Of a stretch of 64,000 nucleotides of DNA, positions 16,788 to 27,669 are shown in pieces. Every line of letters begins with the position of its first letter. The stretch's first letter is position 1. The notes beneath the pieces were generated by a model. The model was not told the DNA's origin. It did no database searches and was given only the letters and a program-made list of their open reading frames with translations. This stretch comes from a virus. Its lineage: Duplodnaviria > Heunggongvirae > Uroviricota > Caudoviricetes. Made by a program: the position numbers and the translations under genes. The stretch lies in the IMG/VR virus record IMGVR_UViG_2939127364_000001; one strand, given 5' to 3'.

Positions 16788-16790
16788 TGA

Positions 16791-16820
16791 AACCCGCCAA
16801 CTGGCGGGTTTTCTTTATTA
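16791..16820. terminator. Bidirectional hairpin terminator between HicB-like gene and dnaE
   Basis: AACCCGCC-AACT-GGCGGGTT followed by TTCTTTATT on plus strand. Confidence 0.6.
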
Positions 16821-19800
16821 CTTATTTATCGTCTCCGCGATATCAGCCAGAATGGCCTCCAGTCGCTCTCCTTCTTCCGGTCGGAAGTACAGGATATTCG
16901 GGTTAAATCCGTAGAAGACGGTTGCATCAAGCTCTGGGAAGTACTCCTTACGACCAATCAGATCTGATGGTTTACTCTTATTGTTAAATAGTGCGGTTGA
17001 ACGACTACCACACGTCAAAATGTAGGTTGGTCGTACAAGATTAATTTCTTCCCGCATAAAGTCTGTGAACTGGCCTATCTCGTCTTTGGTATAGTCTTTC
17101 TCTTTGTCCTTAACCTTCTTACAAACACCCGTGACATAAAGATCGCCCATGCGCAGATCTCCAACTGTCAGTAGTTTTGCCTTAAAGTCGTCGTATCCGT
17201 TCTCCATGAAGTAGCCGGTACGAGCGTCATTGCCGTTCGCATTGTCCAGAATGATCATGATTTTGGGTTTAATACCAATAGTCGGGCGTATCAACTCCTC
17301 ACCCAAGCCCATTTCAGCCGCCATACGTGTCATGAGTACGTTGATTTCGGCAGAACGCTTAGGATTCATTTCGAACGGACGTGATGCTTTAACAGCGTCA
17401 ATGATGAGATTGCCCATCAGCTCAGCCTGGTCGCGCAGTCGTTCAGGATCAGTTGCTGGCAGACTGCCTGGCTCAATTGACGCAAAAGCCCCTACTTTAT
17501 GAAGCGACTCGCGTACACGACTGTTACATGCACGCTTCTCGACCGCTTCATCGAATTGTGCCACTGACTCGAATTTGCCACCAACTTTCTCACGCGCACG
17601 CATAATTGCCTGACAACCATTTTCAGAACAGCCTTTCACAGCAGAGAATGGCGCATACAGTGCCTGACTGCCGTCTTCGAGTGTGCGGATCTCAATTCGG
17701 TTAGATGACACATTAACGTCTGGTGGCAATACGCGAATGCCATAGGTCAGCGCATCCTTCACCAGCCCCTGATGCTTATCCTCGCCCAGAATGGTGAGCG
17801 CAGCTGCGAAGAACTCAGCAGGGTAGTGCGTCTTTAGCCACATAGACTGATAACTGATTAAAGAATAAGCAACGGAGTGTGATTTATTGAAGGCATATCC
17901 ACCGAACTTCTCAAAGGCGTCCCATATTTCTTGGGCTTTTTCCTTACTGAGACCTTCTTGTTCAGAGACGATCTCCACGTAGTCTATGCCGTCACTAATA
18001 GCCTCGCTGTAGCTTCTACGCTTACCGTCTGAGCAATCCAGTTTTGCGTGTTTGTGAACCTCTACAGTACCTCCATTTTTGAGTGACAGTGTCACCCAGC
18101 CTGCTTGTGCTCGTTCTACAAAATCGCTGCCGATCGCTTTCATCTTATCCATGTTCTTTTTACCGATAGCGGAACGCAGAGCGTCTGCTTCGGCCATAGA
18201 GAACCCGGCAAGTACTCGGGAACTTTGCATGATTTGTTCCTGATAGAGCAAAACACCATTAGTCTCCCGGGTGACTTCCTCAAGACGCGGATGAATTGAA
18301 TGTGGAGCCATGAAGCCTTTGGCCACGGAGACATAGTCGTCCAACATGCCGGATTGGATCGGGCCAGGTCGGAAGAGCGCGGTCGTGGCGACAACGGTTT
18401 TAAAGCTCATTGGCTCAATGCCACCGCCCAGATCTTTAAGCAGCTTGCGCATGGGGCCGGACTCCAGCTGGAATACGCCCTGCGTGTACCCTGCAGCGAA
18501 CCCATCCAGAACCTTACGATCGTCCAGTGGAATAGCATCGAGATTGATGTCTTCCCCGGTACTCTCTTTGATGTAGCGTTTCGCGCTATCCAGCAGATCG
18601 AGCGTTGCCAGACCGAGAACGTCCAGCTTAATCAGCCCCATCGCCTCGCAGTAACGTTTATCGAACGCAATACAGCGAGCGTTGCCACGCAGCTCGACGG
18701 GCGTGCGCTCTACCAGTGGAACGCCAGCGACGATCATCCCCGCAGCGTGACGGCCAAAACCACGCATCAGGCTTTGTAGCTTACACGCCGCTTTGAACGC
18801 TTCCGGGTTTTTCGTGGCGTATTTGTCCAGGCTGGCCAGTTGCTCGCGCAGCTCTTCCAGAGACAGGCTATCGTCTTCCAGATTCTTGAACTCTTTGGAT
18901 ACCGCCATATCCGCAGCGTCGACACCGTAAATACGCGCAGTGTCTCGCAGCGCAGAAGCGGCGCCCAGATAGGTGAAGTTTGGAATACCGGCAACGTAAT
19001 CTTCGCCATAGCGTTCATTCAGATACTCGATCACCTCATGACGACGTGCCTGGCTGAAGTCCAGATCCGCATCCGGTAAGTCAAGACGTTCAGGGTTGAT
19101 GAAACGCTCAAACAGAAGACCGTGACGGATAGGATCGACGTTGGTTATGCCTATGCACCACGCCACCAGAGAACCGGCAGAGGAACCACGACCTGGCCCG
19201 ACAGGAATGCCAGTTTCACGGCTGTGATTCATCAGGTCGCGCACCATCAGGAAGTAACCACAGAAGCCCAGGCGAGTCAGCGTGTCCATTTCGTACTTAA
19301 GTCGCTCAACATAAACCCTGTTCTCAGAAGCCGGTGGTGTGTATCCAAACTCTTTTGTGGTAAGACGTTTACGCAGCCCTGCAACAGCCAGTTTCATCAG
19401 CGTTGCAGGTTCGTCGTCTGCCATCTTGGGCAGTGCTGGTGGCAATTCATGCCAGCGCCATGTACAGGCTTCGATAATGGAGTCCTGCGTTGTTGAGGCC
19501 ATTGCAGCTGTTACCGGCACATCCATGCGAACGGAGAAGGCTTTAAGCGCCTCAAGGAGATGGCGGCGACCATTGACGGCGTTATCTCGCTGGTGGGGTA
19601 TACGCAGACGATGCGGCTGGTCGATTTTTATGTTGTTCGTAACCATGTGCGCAATGTCTTTAATGTCTGCATCGTCGGTCGATTCGTAATAAGCGGGATA
19701 GAACGCTACTGGCTCTATTTTCAGTGCGCTGGCTACTTTCATCGCTCGGACGTTAATCTGGTCGTAGAATGGGGTAGGGTGCGGATAAACCACGCTATAG

Positions 19801-20324
19801 AAGTTGTCTTTCCCGCCCGCTGTAATCAGTGAGCTTATGATTTTTGCAAAATCGTTGCGTTGGAACACGCTACCGATGTCGGAAGTGAGCAGGATGATGT
19901 TGCCTTTGGCATATGTAGAAACCAACTGTTCGAGCGAGAGACGCGGTACAAAGTAGAACTGTTCTCGTGTGTTGGCCACCGTCATTAGTTCGCAGATGTC
20001 GCGATATCCTTGCTCATTTTTAATTAGAGCGGTAAACGAGTAGTTACGTCCCCGCTCTAATGATTCCATACATCTCATAGATTCTTTAGCAAGTTTAGCC
20101 CGGTGCTCGTATGTGGGATCATCAACGATATTTAGTTTCACACCACAAATAACCGCCATGTCGTCACCAGCGGCACGTTGTAGTGGAATAACACTCGCAA
20201 TATTCATGCTATCTGCTGAAATTACAGCGGTGTAGCCAGCTTCTCTGGCAATCTTCACCGCGTTTTCTGCTTTTAGAGCCGACTCCCCAAGTGAGAAGTC
20301 AGTTCGAACCATCAGTGCTTTCAT
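16818..20324 (-). CDS. dnaE: DNA polymerase III alpha-type (DnaE family) replicative polymerase
   Basis: 1168 aa; N-terminal PHP-like region; [48 protein letters not shown] matches the conserved DnaE palm motif. Confidence 0.85.
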   Translation of the reverse strand: [1168 protein letters not shown]

Positions 20325-20508
20325 GTGTTTTTACCTTTATGGTTTTTTTGATTTTGTCATTGGGGAAGCCTACGAACTTCCCATACATCGAAATCGCAAC
20401 TTCTTTTGCTGATTGGTGACAATCGGGCTTGTCTGGACATACCAGACAAGCCTTACCAGTTTCAGAAGCAGCGATAAGAGAGCCGAAACATCCTTTACGC
20501 ACGATCAA
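20299..20508 (-). CDS. Small Cys-rich hypothetical protein
   Basis: 69 aa ORF with CLVCPDKPDCH cluster, coupled between AAA ATPase and dnaE. Confidence 0.3.
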   Translation of the reverse strand: MIVRKGCFGSLIAASETGKACLVCPDKPDCHQSAKEVAISMYGKFVGFPNDKIKKTIKVKTHESTDGSN

Positions 20509-21740
20509 CCAAATATTTTTTGAACAACTTCACGAGCCGCTTGTGCAGAAACTGAAGGGAGTTTGTTAATGAAAGAACGCTCAATACCTGTCACAAAGTC
20601 GCCTCGCATCATTCCAATCTTGGCCGACAACAAAAGTTCACGAGGGCCAATTGGCTGACTGATAAGGTGTTCTTCGTATCCATCGCGAACGATACCGGCA
20701 AACTTAACCATCTTTTCTGCGTATTCATCCACGATACCGGCATTTATCAACATGTTGATCTCTGCCTCTTTGCTCATGTATTTCACATTCGAAACGATGC
20801 CAAAACGCGAAAAGTTCGCGGCGTTCTGGATGTTTGTACCCTGGTACAAGCCGGTTTCATCACCAGATCCGTTCGTGTTGCCAGTGCCAATGAAAGCAAA
20901 CCGTTCATGCGGAGTAATGCGACGCCATTCTGGAGTCGCCTCTTTGATGACCAACGCTTCACCTTCCAGCACTGGCTGATACACGCCAAGAATCTGTGGA
21001 AACGCAAAGTCGTATTCATCCGCGAGGTAAACCCAGCCATGCTTCATTGCGAGCGCAAGCAAGCCAGGCTCGAAATACGTAGAGCCATCACGCGCCAGAA
21101 TTTGCCCCGTAACATGTGCCTCTTCCATTGATGCTGTATGTTGGGCACGGATCAACGGACGATTGAGCAAAGCACATAGTTGTGTAGGCAATGACGATTT
21201 GCCTGTTCCTGCATGACCCCACAAATAGCCAGGTATGCCAAGTTCAAGCATCATGAAAATGTCTTTGATCAGTTCGAAGTCGCCATATACGTAGCCCTTC
21301 TTCACTTCTGGAACGAACTCTGGAAACGGCGTATTGACGTTGACGCTAACCATGAGCGGCGTCCCACGTTTTGTTCCGAGTTCTTTCACCGTTACATTTA
21401 GCAGTTCGTGAGCTGCGACCAGATCTGTCTTGTACTCAACTGTGCCTGTGTAGCCTGGGCTACTGGTCACGCCAGATGATTTGGCCATTTCGCTTTTTTG
21501 CTCGGCACGTTTAGCTTGAATTGCATCAAGTGCCTTTTTCGATAGCGTTGGCTCATCTGGAAACTGTGTTGTGTACATTTTCAGTACGGTGTCAGGATCG
21601 GCATCTTTTACTGACTCAGGAATGCCCTCGCAATTACCATTGGCTACATGGGACTTAAAATAGTGAAATGATTTTCCGCACCACTTGCAAACAAGGTAAT
21701 CAGAAGGATTTTTTTCATTTTGCAGTGCAGTAGTAGTCAT
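20505..21740 (-). CDS. AAA+ ATPase (MoxR/CobS-like)
   Basis: 411 aa; Walker A LWGHAGTGKSSL; N-terminal CxxC...C cluster. Confidence 0.65.
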   Translation of the reverse strand: MTTTALQNEKNPSDYLVCKWCGKSFHYFKSHVANGNCEGIPESVKDADPDTVLKMYTTQFPDEPTLSKKALDAIQAKRAEQKSEMAKSSGVTSSPGYTGTVEYKTDLVAAHELLNVTVKELGTKRGTPLMVSVNVNTPFPEFVPEVKKGYVYGDFELIKDIFMMLELGIPGYLWGHAGTGKSSLPTQLCALLNRPLIRAQHTASMEEAHVTGQILARDGSTYFEPGLLALAMKHGWVYLADEYDFAFPQILGVYQPVLEGEALVIKEATPEWRRITPHERFAFIGTGNTNGSGDETGLYQGTNIQNAANFSRFGIVSNVKYMSKEAEINMLINAGIVDEYAEKMVKFAGIVRDGYEEHLISQPIGPRELLLSAKIGMMRGDFVTGIERSFINKLPSVSAQAAREVVQKIFG

Positions 21741-21835
21741 GCGTTTTTCCTTTGTTTTCTAATGAGCGTTCAACTTCTTATATAAATATATCATTATCTA
21801 TCGTAAGTGGTTACTTATCATTAAGGCTGTTTTGT

Positions 21836-23944
21836 TCACTTTAAAATGATACGAGATAGTTCAGTAACTACAGATGAACCAAGACTATCAACGCTCGTTA
21901 CCAGGGCATGATTTGAGTAAAATCTCTCCGGTGCGTCAGTCATGATGCCAATTGCCATCAAATCAATGTCAGTCTGCGTTTCAATTTGCTTCGCAACCGA
22001 ACGCAAATGAGCGTCAAAACCTCTCCCAACAGCCCACGGCTCGCCATCGCTCAGAACAAGCATGATCTTCCTGTCCTCCATGCGACCGGAAAATAACGAT
22101 GCAAGGCTGGCTATGCTTTCACCATCCACGTTATTAAGAAGTGGGAATGTGTAGCCTACGCACCCCATACGTGAGCGAACTTCGCGAGAATTTACCTTTT
22201 CATTCCAATTTTTGATGATAGGTAGCATTAAAGATTCAAAGCGAGAGAACTCATACTTGACAGCCTTAAGTTCTCCTGCCGCCATATGACTACCAAATGT
22301 AGTGAAGCCGGTGATAATGTTGGGAACATTTATTCGATCAAGGGCATCGGCGATGGTATATGCACTTGCAAGAGCCAATTGTATCGTTATACCCCTCATT
22401 GAACCTGATAAATCAATCACTTGTTGAACACAGGCGTTAACGGCTTTAGATTCTTCTTTTTTACGAAACACGCGATCATCATTCATTGCTAATCTGTAGA
22501 TACTAGAACCATGAATGCGCCCCCGACGCTGGCCCGGTATAAACTGAACTCTGTTTCTGCTTGCTATTGCTCGCTCCAGGTCTTTTGCCAGCGTCGACGA
22601 AACACCTGACGAAAGATGCTTTTCAATATATTTGTCGAAGAGCTGGTTGCCTTCAGAAACGATGCGATAGCGGCTGATTGGACATCCTCCTAAATCAATA
22701 TCGGAGAATGTTTTAATAAGCCGTTTGATATGGGCTTCTGCCTGATCAATCGAGCCGATGAAGTCGTATGAGCGATTGTATGGCCTGTATTCGCTTTTCG
22801 AGCTTTCTGTTAACTCGCTTTTAATCGTTTCGGATAGAGCATCTTCTGTCATGCCTCCGACTTCATCTTCTATGCTATCCAGCTCCTCTAAAGCCTCTTC
22901 CAGACTCATTTTTGACGGAGTTGGAATATCTGAAGAGCCGTCTTCTGTCGTTTTTCTTTTTTCGTGGTCAGCGGTTAATGATTCTGACGCCGCGTTATCA
23001 GAAGCATCAGAATCTGATACCTCTTTATCATTTTCTGTATCATCGAATATTGTTTCTGATGATTCAGAATTATCTGAATCATCGCTGTCGTTATTATCAT
23101 GTTTGTGCTTACTGTGTGATTCTGATTTGATAGATTTGTGATTATCTAACGCTGAGGGTGTCTCATGATCTTCGTTGTCTTCATTGTTTTCTCCAGAGGC
23201 ATCCGTCTGGTCAGCGTCTGAAGGATCGGAAGTTTTTCCCGGAGCTGACTCCTTACCTTTGCTTTCACTTTCAGTGTCTTTGAGGATCTTAGCTATGGTC
23301 GCAGCCACCTTTACACAATCCTCGGTGCAAGACATGTTACGCACGGCCACATCGATACCATGTTCTTTTAATAATGAAATTGGTTTCTCAATGACAGGCC
23401 AATATTCATCCATGAAATCTACGAACGGTGCTTGGCCATCCCAGGCTCTTACAACCGGACAGAGAAAGAAGTTTAGAAAAAGCGCGCGCTGATCTTTGCC
23501 ACAATAAGCAATAGCCTCTGAAGCCTTTGGTTTAAAGACTTTTTCGATTATAAGGCGCTGAGTTGCCATCAGATTACGTCTTGTTCCGTTAAAGATCTGA
23601 CCCATTTTTCGCTCGATGAACACGTCTTCTAAGGCATTCCATAGCGACCAGGAAGGAACGCGTCCTTTTTCTCTCATTTTGTTGGACACACGAATATCGG
23701 TAAACAAAATGTGAGCAACCTCATGATCGAGAAATCCGCGCACAGCATTCATCAATGCCGGTGTTGCGTTATCCGGGATTGATGGGATGTTTACGAGAAT
23801 TGGCTCTCCATCATCGTTATAGCGTACATAAGCGTCGTCCCCTCGTTCTGCAACAGGGATGTTTTTACCTGAAAGGAGAGCGACTACTCGTTTTACACTG
23901 TCACGGAAGTCCTGAACCTCTTTGATGGAACGTTTTTTAGACAT
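21836..23944 (-). CDS. von Willebrand factor A domain protein (CobT-like) with long acidic linker
   Basis: 702 aa; C-terminal MIDAS motif VIDLSGSM; central D/E/S-rich low-complexity region. Confidence 0.6.
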   Translation of the reverse strand: MSKKRSIKEVQDFRDSVKRVVALLSGKNIPVAERGDDAYVRYNDDGEPILVNIPSIPDNATPALMNAVRGFLDHEVAHILFTDIRVSNKMREKGRVPSWSLWNALEDVFIERKMGQIFNGTRRNLMATQRLIIEKVFKPKASEAIAYCGKDQRALFLNFFLCPVVRAWDGQAPFVDFMDEYWPVIEKPISLLKEHGIDVAVRNMSCTEDCVKVAATIAKILKDTESESKGKESAPGKTSDPSDADQTDASGENNEDNEDHETPSALDNHKSIKSESHSKHKHDNNDSDDSDNSESSETIFDDTENDKEVSDSDASDNAASESLTADHEKRKTTEDGSSDIPTPSKMSLEEALEELDSIEDEVGGMTEDALSETIKSELTESSKSEYRPYNRSYDFIGSIDQAEAHIKRLIKTFSDIDLGGCPISRYRIVSEGNQLFDKYIEKHLSSGVSSTLAKDLERAIASRNRVQFIPGQRRGRIHGSSIYRLAMNDDRVFRKKEESKAVNACVQQVIDLSGSMRGITIQLALASAYTIADALDRINVPNIITGFTTFGSHMAAGELKAVKYEFSRFESLMLPIIKNWNEKVNSREVRSRMGCVGYTFPLLNNVDGESIASLASLFSGRMEDRKIMLVLSDGEPWAVGRGFDAHLRSVAKQIETQTDIDLMAIGIMTDAPERFYSNHALVTSVDSLGSSVVTELSRIILK

Positions 23945-24042
23945 GGCTAATCCTTTGTTATGAAAACAAATTATTTACTAGTGTGTTTAATGTAGCACTG
24001 CGCGAACAGGGAACTAAGCCATTCGCGCAGGGAGAAGAGGGG

Positions 24043-24255
24043 TTAACAGATTCTGACGGCTAAAGACCCGGAGCCGGTATTGAGAAGCGTGAAGCGTTTG
24101 TTGTTAAGTTCGAATATAAATCCAGTTGTGTCATTCACACCAACCTGAATCTGCTCATTCGGTAGATCGGTGAGGATGTCAGCTACACACTCATCAGCTA
24201 ATTTCTGTACGTGTCCGATCTCAAGAGCGATTAGGCTGGAAATAGTGGTGTTCAT
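24043..24255 (-). CDS. Hypothetical protein
   Basis: 70 aa ORF divergent from HTH regulator gene. Confidence 0.3.
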   Translation of the reverse strand: MNTTISSLIALEIGHVQKLADECVADILTDLPNEQIQVGVNDTTGFIFELNNKRFTLLNTGSGSLAVRIC

Positions 24256-24506: not shown

Positions 24507-24893
24507 ATGTCTGATAACAAGATTGAATTTATAGAAAGTCGCTACGCTGCTTTTATCGCAGGGTTGATTGAATCCTCACCTATGAGCCAGGCCCAGATAG
24601 CCAAAACAATTGGGTATAAAAACGCCAACAACCTTTCTTTAATTAAAAGCGGCAAAATTCCTTTGCCTATCGATAAGGTTCGTCCGCTGGCGCTGGCACT
24701 GGGTATTGAGCCAAGTCGTCTTATGATGATGGTGCTGGAAGAACGCCAACCCGAACTCGCAGCATTTTTATACAAAGAAGGCACTGCTCCTCTTAACGAG
24801 GACGAAAAACAGGTTCTTGCTGCATATAACGAGCGATTCGGTAAAGAGAAAGGCGCATCACAAAAGGTTGTTGAGGCCATAAAGTCTCTATGA
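24507..24893 (+). CDS. HTH (XRE/Cro-CI-like) transcriptional regulator
   Basis: 128 aa; helix-turn-helix segment SQAQIAKTIGYKNANNLSLIKSG. Confidence 0.6.
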   Translation: MSDNKIEFIESRYAAFIAGLIESSPMSQAQIAKTIGYKNANNLSLIKSGKIPLPIDKVRPLALALGIEPSRLMMMVLEERQPELAAFLYKEGTAPLNEDEKQVLAAYNERFGKEKGASQKVVEAIKSL

Positions 24894-27422: not shown

Positions 27423-27498
27423 TGGTGCCGGTTAACGGGATCGAACCGCTGACATCCTGCTTACAAGGCAGGCGCTCTACCAACTGAGCTAAACCGGC
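27423..27498 (-). tRNA. tRNA-Thr (anticodon UGU)
   Basis: Minus strand GCCGGTTTAGCTCAGTTGGTAGAGCGCCTGCCTTGTAAGCAGGATGTCAGCGGTTCGATCCCGTTAACCGGCACCA; canonical cloverleaf, encoded CCA. Confidence 0.8.
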
Positions 27499-27502
27499 AA
27501 TT

Positions 27503-27589
27503 TGGTGGGGAGTGATGGAGTCGAACCACCCGAGTCGCAATGACAGTAGATTTACAGTCTACCCCGCTGCCCCTACGGACTAACTCCCC
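27503..27589 (-). tRNA. tRNA-Tyr (anticodon GUA), type II
   Basis: Minus strand GGGGAGTTAGTCC...GGGTAGACTGTAAATCTACTG...GGTTCGACTCCATCACTCCCCACCA; anticodon loop CTGTAAA. Confidence 0.65.
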
Positions 27590-27594
27590 TAAAT

Positions 27595-27669
27595 TGGCGA
27601 TGGTGGGTGGATTCGAACCACCGACCAGTTGGTTAACAGCCAACTGCTCTACCGCTGAGCTACACCATC
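27595..27669 (-). tRNA. tRNA-Asn (anticodon GUU)
   Basis: Minus strand GATGGTGTAGCTCAGCGGTAGAGCAGTTGGCTGTTAACCAACTGGTCGGTGGTTCGAATCCACCCACCATCGCCA. Confidence 0.75.

Follow-up and report, generated by a model that had tools for sequence, protein, structure and literature searches.

A CobS/CobT-related pair of an AAA+ ATPase and a metallopeptidase-like vWA protein in the replication module of an SSU5-like phage-plasmid

Results and Discussion

A stretch of 64,000 nucleotides from a tailed virus (Caudoviricetes; IMG/VR record IMGVR_UViG_2939127364_000001), hereafter the window, encodes a CobT-related protein of 702 aa (21836..23944) and a CobS-related AAA+ ATPase of 411 aa (20505..21740); these and all features below lie on the minus strand unless stated otherwise. 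The CobT-related protein appears to combine a von Willebrand factor A (vWA) adaptor with an N-terminal metallopeptidase-like domain whose HExxH motif is kept in viral homologues and lost in four cellular CobT proteins. The pair lies inside the replication/recombination module in three phage lineages that use different polymerases (DnaE, Pol A and T4-like). We tentatively propose, as a plausible reading, that the pair is a viral, CobN-independent relative of CobS-CobT, which would act as an ATP-driven protein remodelling and processing machine of the early/replication programme.

With Escherichia phage Cyrano (OV696614), which is plasmid pLF82, the window shares 99.7% identity, and it represents an SSU5-like phage-plasmid, as had been assumed in an earlier reading made from the letters without database searches (the sequence-only reading). 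Similar DNA was found in 769 PLSDB plasmids from Klebsiella, Escherichia, Enterobacter, Yersinia and Salmonella. The label "CobS/CobT-like" given to the pair by the sequence-only reading agrees with our results, since both proteins match the solved Brucella CobS and CobT structures, and the domain search that it proposed recovered AAA_5 (the MoxR/dynein-related class), CobT and CobT_C/vWA. Three features had escaped it, namely the HExxH peptidase-like domain, the minus-strand gene order and the tight coupling to dnaE.

N-terminal domain of the CobT-related protein

The N-terminal zincin/M48-like domain comprises residues 1-222 (23279..23944). It contains HEVAH (H74-E75-x-x-H78; 23711..23725), a putative zinc-binding and catalytic motif kept in viral homologues, and a helix with invariant residues, N103-x-x-E106-D107-x-x-x-E111 (23612..23638), which offers a candidate third metal ligand. 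When 1.84 billion cluster representatives (50%-identity clusters) were searched with this domain, 1114 hits were obtained, and among the best 150 of these representatives HExxH was found in all 149 sequences spanning the site. H74, E75, H78, E106, D107 and E111 are invariant across three alignments. HExxH, the Glu helix and the MIDAS (metal ion-dependent adhesion site) of the vWA domain were retained by nearly all complete open reading frames (ORFs); in the Pol A-type lineage the exact Glu-helix pattern often failed to match. In the SSU5-like, Pol A-type and T4-like lineages, every complete ORF but one has HExxH itself. At the exceptional locus (L060:8666-10813), the ORF as called encodes a CobT-like protein of 715 aa with the MIDAS but with neither HExxH nor the Glu-helix motif, which may reflect divergence of the N-domain or a start called at the wrong place.

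In the four cellular CobT proteins compared (Sinorhizobium meliloti, Cereibacter azotoformans, Pandoraea oxalativorans and Sphingomonas parapaucimobilis), DHEVAH is replaced by DSMALR, DAFALR or DAAALQ, whereas E106 and E111 are retained. These four were obtained by tblastn of plasmids and chromids, because the scan of one genome per species described below used the HExxH peptide as its search pattern and could not sample cellular CobT. Judged from the sequences examined, the viral clade seems to possess a peptidase fold with all catalytic residues, and the cellular adaptor an inactivated version of the same fold.

The AlphaFold model of the N-domain (predicted local distance difference test, pLDDT, 91.7; predicted template modelling score 0.87) shows a single helix and a sheet of three strands, together with the HExxH helix (residues 62-81) and the Glu helix (99-117). 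The predicted arrangement is that of a gluzincin, with HExxH on a helix, a candidate Glu ligand downstream and a zincin fold, and it is consistent with the published description of Brucella CobT_N as M48C-like. At the sequence level, Pfam M48 gave no match to the N-domain, and the profile of viral homologues described below, searched against PDB, aligned in this domain solely from the Glu helix onward. A single-sequence phmmer search of PDB returned only HLA and SOD matches, which were rejected as spurious. The fusion of a metallopeptidase with a vWA domain was previously noted in jumbo phages (PMC7824862), and cyanophage cobT genes are reportedly annotated as peptidases in most cases (PMC8651126).

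Linker, shaft and vWA domain

The sequence-only reading had described a 702-aa protein with a long acidic linker and a C-terminal vWA MIDAS motif, and this description is borne out by the ORF, its composition and the domain matches. Pfam placed a CobT N-domain at residues 9-294 (4.5e-27) and the CobT_C vWA domain at residues 492-701 (3.7e-82), phrog_1576 matched at 2.3e-300, and a viral profile of 65 diverse homologues matched Brucella CobT (9uka) at 1.8e-62. The full-length AlphaFold2 model (pLDDT 80.1) has a confident C-terminal domain of alternating beta strands and alpha helices.

The N-domain is followed by an acidic, Ser-rich linker (residues 223-385; 22790..23278) with 31% D+E, 27% S+T and a pI of 4.08. 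It is predicted to be disordered from its composition and from pLDDT values below 50 over residues 231-337, which make up most of it in the full-length model. Among close SSU5-group relatives the protein is 649-790 aa long. Residues ~463-504 (22433..22558) align to Q373-R413 of Brucella CobT, the shaft, and include the conserved residues G471, G475, D489, R491 and F493. By cryo-electron microscopy of Brucella CobSTN, the CobT shaft inserts into the nucleotide-bound CobS ring (10.64898/2026.07.21.739949). The vWA domain (21839..22432) matches the crystal structure of a CobT vWA domain (21vt; 8.6e-16) and carries a complete MIDAS (D511-L-S513-G-S515, T548 and D633), all five residues of which are invariant in the alignments. 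As expected of a MoxR-vWA pair, the ATPase gene thus has an adjacent, co-oriented partner that encodes a vWA protein with a complete MIDAS.

In seven loci (L012, L016, L023, L034, L049, L086 and L087), the CobT-like gene appears as two ORFs, one for the peptidase part and one for the vWA part, which may reflect real splits, frameshifts or sequencing errors. A two-ORF CobT has likewise been reported from the haloarchaeal virus HHTV-2 (PMC8651126).

CobS-related ATPase

A Walker A-containing AAA+ ATPase, as the sequence-only reading had proposed, was found in the 411-aa protein. Pfam AAA_5 covers residues 173-293 (2.1e-15), phrog_249 matches at 4.9e-106, and the nearest solved structure is Brucella CobS (9ujv; 9.6e-26), followed by midasin, CbbQ and NorQ. 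The Walker A motif is G175-HAGTGKS182 and the Walker B motif has D241-E242; alignment to Brucella CobS identifies N288 as sensor-1, R312 as the Arg finger and R367 as sensor-2. These residues correspond to G71-S78, D141-E142, N186, R210 and R271 of Brucella CobS, in the numbering of the preprint 10.64898/2026.07.21.739949, and they are invariant among 71 homologues from the fetched loci. These five motifs, expected of a MoxR-class ATPase, are all intact. The sequence alignment with CobS runs without a break through the regions where a helix-2 insert and a pre-sensor-1 beta-hairpin would lie, and R147 of Brucella CobS, which contacts the shaft, pairs with F247.

The alignment with Brucella CobS begins at residue 141 of the phage protein and ends at Brucella residue 315 of 328. 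Residues 1-140 (21321..21740) form an N-terminal extension that has no counterpart in cellular CobS and carries a zinc-finger-like pattern, C18-x2-C21-x4-H26-x4-H31. Among SSU5-like relatives C18 does not vary, and the conservation of G22, H26 and H31 is at least 90%. The extension is specific to this lineage, being missing from the T4-like and Pol A lineages. The second Cys of the pattern is replaced by Asp in some relatives.

Against the NCBIfam equivalog models, the ATPase scored 86.1 bits with TIGR01650 (CobS; cut-off 558.55, that is, 15% of it) and its partner 68.1 bits with TIGR01651 (CobT; cut-off 759.05, 9%), the latter over residues 295-697 only. Because these scores are far below the cut-offs, we refer to the proteins as CobS/CobT-related and not as CobS and CobT.

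Genomic context

A scan of one genome per species gave 31 loci in alpha-, beta- and gammaproteobacteria, a cyanobacterium, a Chloroflexi metagenome-assembled genome and Desulfosarcina, many of them on contigs of 96-118 kb. In these taxa, by tblastn, the order helicase-primase-ligase ... HTH-cobT-cobS-(Cys4 ORF)-dnaE-uvsY-gp32-exo-recA, where HTH denotes a helix-turn-helix gene and Cys4 a four-cysteine ORF, is retained at 29-40% protein identity. Twelve loci (L005, L006, L007, L011, L012, L018, L020, L022, L024, L029, L030 and L033) show the same order at 29-60% identity. They come from Xenorhabdus, Morganella, Photobacterium, Roseospira, Phyllobacterium, Ancylobacter, Massilia, Paracoccus, Chitinibacter, Faunimonas and Magnetospirillum, and lie on contigs of ~96-118 kb, except for the Photobacterium locus (L007) on a contig of 1.05 Mb. 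The same gene order on contigs of this size in so many genera suggests that SSU5-like phage-plasmids extend far past Enterobacteriaceae.

A scan of IMG/VR, in which ORFs were clustered and recurrent neighbours annotated with Pfam and PHROG, added 75 further loci. In the Pol A lineage, cobT-cobS is followed by genes for a primase, a DnaB-type helicase, a family A polymerase and a PDDEXK nuclease; in the T4-like lineage the pair lies between gp47/gp46 and gp45/gp44/gp62/regA. In 70 of 95 loci, CobS is co-oriented and at most two ORFs away; 71 of the 95 have a recognisable gene of replication or recombination at most six ORFs away. According to structural matches in BFVD, the family reaches haloarchaeal tailed viruses and actinophages. 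In cyanophages, cobS has counted among the core genes of the T4-like group since 2010 (PMC3037559) and serves as the early-gene marker for P-SSM2 (PMC6628666).

In the window, the gene after cobS is a 69-aa ORF (20299..20508), which matches phrog_6337 at 2.2e-44 and phrog_3616 weakly and contains four cysteines in the pattern C7-x-G-x11-C21-x2-C24-x5-C30. The same pattern is the conserved N-terminal motif of a phrog_3616 ORF of ~200 aa that 26 non-enteric relatives have between cobS and dnaE (for example L060:12146-12745). By this shared motif, the enteric ORF looks like a shortened form of phrog_3616 reduced to its N-terminal module. The sequence-only reading had assigned the interval 20299-23944 to the pair; both genes are inside it, and so is this third conserved ORF.

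Three observations at other positions of these loci may be added. A sigma-70 region 2-like ORF (Pfam Sigma70_r2, 7.6e-06; phrog_351) occurs between cobS and dnaE in 18 non-enteric relatives (for example L018:13631-14278) and is absent from the window. In three loci (L006, L041 and L058), dnaE is interrupted by an HNH endonuclease ORF (phrog_1492; 8.7e-47 for the family representative), which suggests a homing element or an intein-type insertion. The cellular cobS-cobT genes of Sinorhizobium, Cereibacter and Sphingomonas (L035:585-4657, L036:1-4651 and L038:1-4618) adjoin genes for BolA-family and J-domain proteins, not other cob genes.

Proposed function and alternatives

The Brucella structures serve as the template for the proposed mechanism. 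Because all catalytic AAA+ residues are kept, the CobS-related protein should form a hexameric, ATP-hydrolysing ring, to which the adaptor would bind by its shaft and its N-domain. The MIDAS of the vWA domain would capture an acidic residue of a protein client, much as the MIDAS face holds CobN in the chelatase. ATP hydrolysis by the ring, transmitted through the shaft, would then remodel the client, and the N-domain, acting as a zinc peptidase, would cut the client or an associated protein. The motifs, the shaft, the MIDAS and the peptidase motif and fold are present in the phage pair; ring formation, client capture and proteolysis are inferred. The gene position and the translational coupling point to a client in the replication/recombination apparatus, or to a protein on replicating DNA. 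In the SSU5-like lineage, the Cys4 ORF product and DnaE are the first candidates, since their genes are translationally coupled to cobS. As a general client DnaE is ruled out: the pair occurs without it in the Pol A and T4-like lineages, so that a general client must be shared more widely.

Several points weigh against this proposal. In the literature we found no experiment on any viral CobS/CobT and no functional study of the pair in SSU5-like elements, pLF82 or Caulobacter. The statement of the sequence-only reading that the function in phages is unresolved was accurate. For the structural mechanism we rely on one preprint on Brucella CobSTN, and the absence of CobN from E. coli is taken from the literature and from the annotation of the element. 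Conserved gene order within a phage lineage can reflect inheritance and not functional linkage, and one T4-like sub-lineage has a CobT-like gene without an adjacent CobS. In addition, the HExxH...E site could bind a metal for delivery and not for proteolysis.

This last point leads to the alternative that the pair is a metal-insertion chaperone, like CobNST, BchIDH, NorQ/NorD or CoxD/CoxE, which loads a phage metalloenzyme and uses HExxH...E as a metal relay. We regard this as unlikely, though it has evidence on its side. The nearest relatives with structures, CobS/CobT and NorQ/NorD, are metal-insertion machines, and E106 and E111 are retained by cellular CobT too. Possible clients are at hand in the element, which encodes the di-iron NrdB with its partner NrdA, DnaE with its PHP domain, and the Cys4 ORF product, the last two translationally coupled to cobS. 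However, neither DnaE nor the Cys4 ORF occurs in the Pol A and T4-like contexts, so a role specific to DnaE could not apply to all lineages. Cellular CobT, moreover, functions without HExxH, so that metal insertion as such does not need the motif, and a strictly conserved HExxH catalytic Glu is typical of hydrolysis. A role in host takeover or counter-defence, in which an early AAA+-assisted protease would remove a host nucleoid or replication factor or a defence component, would use the same activities that we propose, and is somewhat less probable still. The hosts include archaea and actinobacteria as well as cyanobacteria and enterics, which argues against a single host-specific target, and the proteins are conserved and not fast-evolving, except for the linker. 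PADLOC defence-system models gave no match above noise, which speaks against this role too. A defence system of the MoxR-vWA ternary type was also considered for the pair itself and rejected, on the same PADLOC result and because the neighbours are replication genes, where such a system would have a third VMAP/iSTAND component.

For the related MoxR-vWA-metallopeptidase pair of group 2.2 jumbo phages, a role in assembly has been proposed by analogy with the MoxR/vWA tail system of Acidianus two-tailed virus (PMC7824862), and MoxR-vWA pairs do serve as assembly chaperones in several systems. A virion-assembly chaperone with a maturation protease is nevertheless improbable here. The genes are in the replication/recombination module and not among structural genes in all three lineages examined, the tail and head genes of the window are more than 15 kb away, and cobS is early in P-SSM2 (PMC6628666). 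Equally improbable is a further reading, in which the pair would be a replisome-associated, AAA+-driven protease that, by analogy with Cdc48-Wss1 and p97-SPRTN, clears tightly bound or cross-linked host or phage proteins from the replicating template. If true, it would explain both the position in the replication module across three polymerase types and the retention of the peptidase site in the viral clade only.

Finally, the two proteins may be considered as auxiliary cobaltochelatase subunits that hijack the host CobN (or ChlH/BchH) and raise the cobalamin supply for the phage, as has been proposed for tailed viruses (PMC8651126). The CobS/CobT homology is clear, and at the domain level it includes the conserved shaft and MIDAS. 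Even so, this is the least probable of the readings, and a very doubtful one. No CobN-like gene was found among the 126 annotated features of the Cyrano record, and by the literature E. coli has none; the aerobic B12 pathway in E. coli needed heterologous cobN, cobS and cobT (PMC6249242). The low equivalog scores given above and the conservation of HExxH in the viral clade only, in the sequences examined, also speak against cobaltochelatase. The element and its close relatives live in E. coli, Salmonella, Klebsiella and Yersinia. These bacteria either are not known to synthesize cobalamin de novo or use the CbiK pathway, which works without CobN. In addition, the ribonucleotide reductase encoded by the element, NrdA/NrdB, is of class I, and the NrdAB class is not known to use B12. 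The pair is thus probably not making cobalamin, and its action as a CobN-independent remodelling machine is the reading that we carry forward.

The existence and the domain content of the pair are already known, as the genes are annotated and the metallopeptidase-vWA architecture has been described. The finding bears on the interpretation of viromes, since cobST is widespread in tailed viruses of bacteria and archaea and is routinely counted there as a cobalamin "auxiliary metabolic gene". For the viral clade this label is probably wrong, because the peptidase site is intact by its sequence, the enterobacterial hosts appear to lack CobN, and the genes occupy a replication-module position and, judged from cobS of P-SSM2, are expressed early. 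The version on an E. coli phage-plasmid provides a genetically tractable system in which to ask what the pair does.

Comparison with related systems

The phage pair follows the plan of CobS/CobT from Brucella melitensis (9ujv, 9uka) and of the Pseudomonas denitrificans type, in which an AAA+ ring subunit works with an adaptor; in common with Brucella CobT, the adaptor consists of an M48-like N-domain, an acidic disordered linker, a shaft and a vWA/MIDAS domain. The phage pair keeps the complete set of AAA+ catalytic residues together with the shaft segment and the MIDAS. It differs from the cellular systems in its HExxH motif, in the 140-residue Cys/His extension of the CobS-related protein, and in gene order, which is cobT then cobS in the phage but cobS then cobT in cells. 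With the viral cobST or MoxR-vWA pairs with a metallopeptidase, from cyanophages, group 2.2 jumbo phages and haloarchaeal tailed viruses, it shares the same families (phrog_249 and phrog_1576). Architecture and adjacency agree with those published and no essential difference was seen; the traits peculiar to the SSU5-like version are the CobS N-terminal extension and the coupling to the Cys4 ORF and dnaE.

NorQ/NorD, CbbQ/CbbO, RavA/ViaA, CoxD/CoxE and p618/p892 of Acidianus two-tailed virus likewise place an AAA_5-type ATPase beside a MIDAS-containing vWA partner, and the phage pair has weak sequence matches to CbbQ, NorQ and NorD. Unlike the phage protein, the adaptors of these systems (NorD, CbbO, ViaA, CoxE and p892) have not been reported to carry a peptidase domain, and they have known enzymes or parts of the virion as clients. 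Relative to the M48/M56 gluzincins and minigluzincins (Ste24/ZMPSTE24, BepA, BlaR1, projannalysin and selecase), the phage domain is soluble and fused to a vWA domain. The likeness to Cdc48/p97 with Wss1/SPRTN is an analogy only: the fold scores reflect generic zincin similarity, and neither homology between the ATPases nor a DNA-binding domain in the phage pair was identified.

The names under which these genes are filed vary. RefSeq uses "cobalamin biosynthesis protein CobT" or "cobaltochelatase CobT-related protein" for the one and "AAA family ATPase" for the other. In the Cyrano record (OV696614.1), CYRAN_47 and CYRAN_48 (window 21836-23944 and 20505-21740) are labelled "dimethylbenzimidazole phosphoribosyltransferase" and "cobalamin synthetase". 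We take these to be the functions of the unrelated Salmonella CobT and CobS. Pfam searches of both proteins gave no support for the Cyrano names, which, given this collision of names, are an annotation error.

Transcription unit and neighbouring genes

The interval 20299-23944 has its three ORFs on the minus strand; transcription therefore reaches the gene of the vWA protein first and that of the ATPase second, the reverse of the order in which the sequence-only reading had listed them. The transcription order is CobT-related gene, CobS-related gene, 69-aa Cys4 ORF and the gene for the DnaE-type DNA polymerase III alpha subunit (1168 aa; 16818..20324), the last identified by its ORF and the Cyrano annotation. 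The gap between cobT and cobS is 95 nt, and the 69-aa ORF has an overlap of 4 nt with the stop of cobS and one of 26 nt with the start of dnaE. No terminator-like site was found in the minus-strand intergenic gaps from 24255 to 16818. Because of the gene overlaps and the lack of such sites in the gaps, cobT-cobS-orf69-dnaE looks like a single transcription unit with dnaE last. The sole further minus-strand terminator-like matches are within dnaE (17505-17488) and within the repressor-gene region, and a hairpin lies just beyond dnaE at 16789-16812.

The first gene of the unit may be a 70-aa ORF upstream of cobT (24043..24255), which matches phrog_2627 at 8.8e-41 and is syntenic with enterobacterial relatives. 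Divergent from it, on the plus strand, is an HTH repressor gene (24507-24893). A promoter scan gave fewer sites than expected by chance, with no clear minus-strand promoter upstream of cobT, and a search for tandem repeats gave no meaningful result. The 98-nt gap between the 70-aa ORF and cobT contains an inverted repeat, CTGCGCGAA-N15-TTCGCGCAG, at window positions ~23995-24027 on the minus strand, without a following T-run. The only Rfam matches in the window were three tRNA genes in a row at 27426-27669, outside the interval of the pair and annotated in Cyrano as Asn, Thr and Ser.

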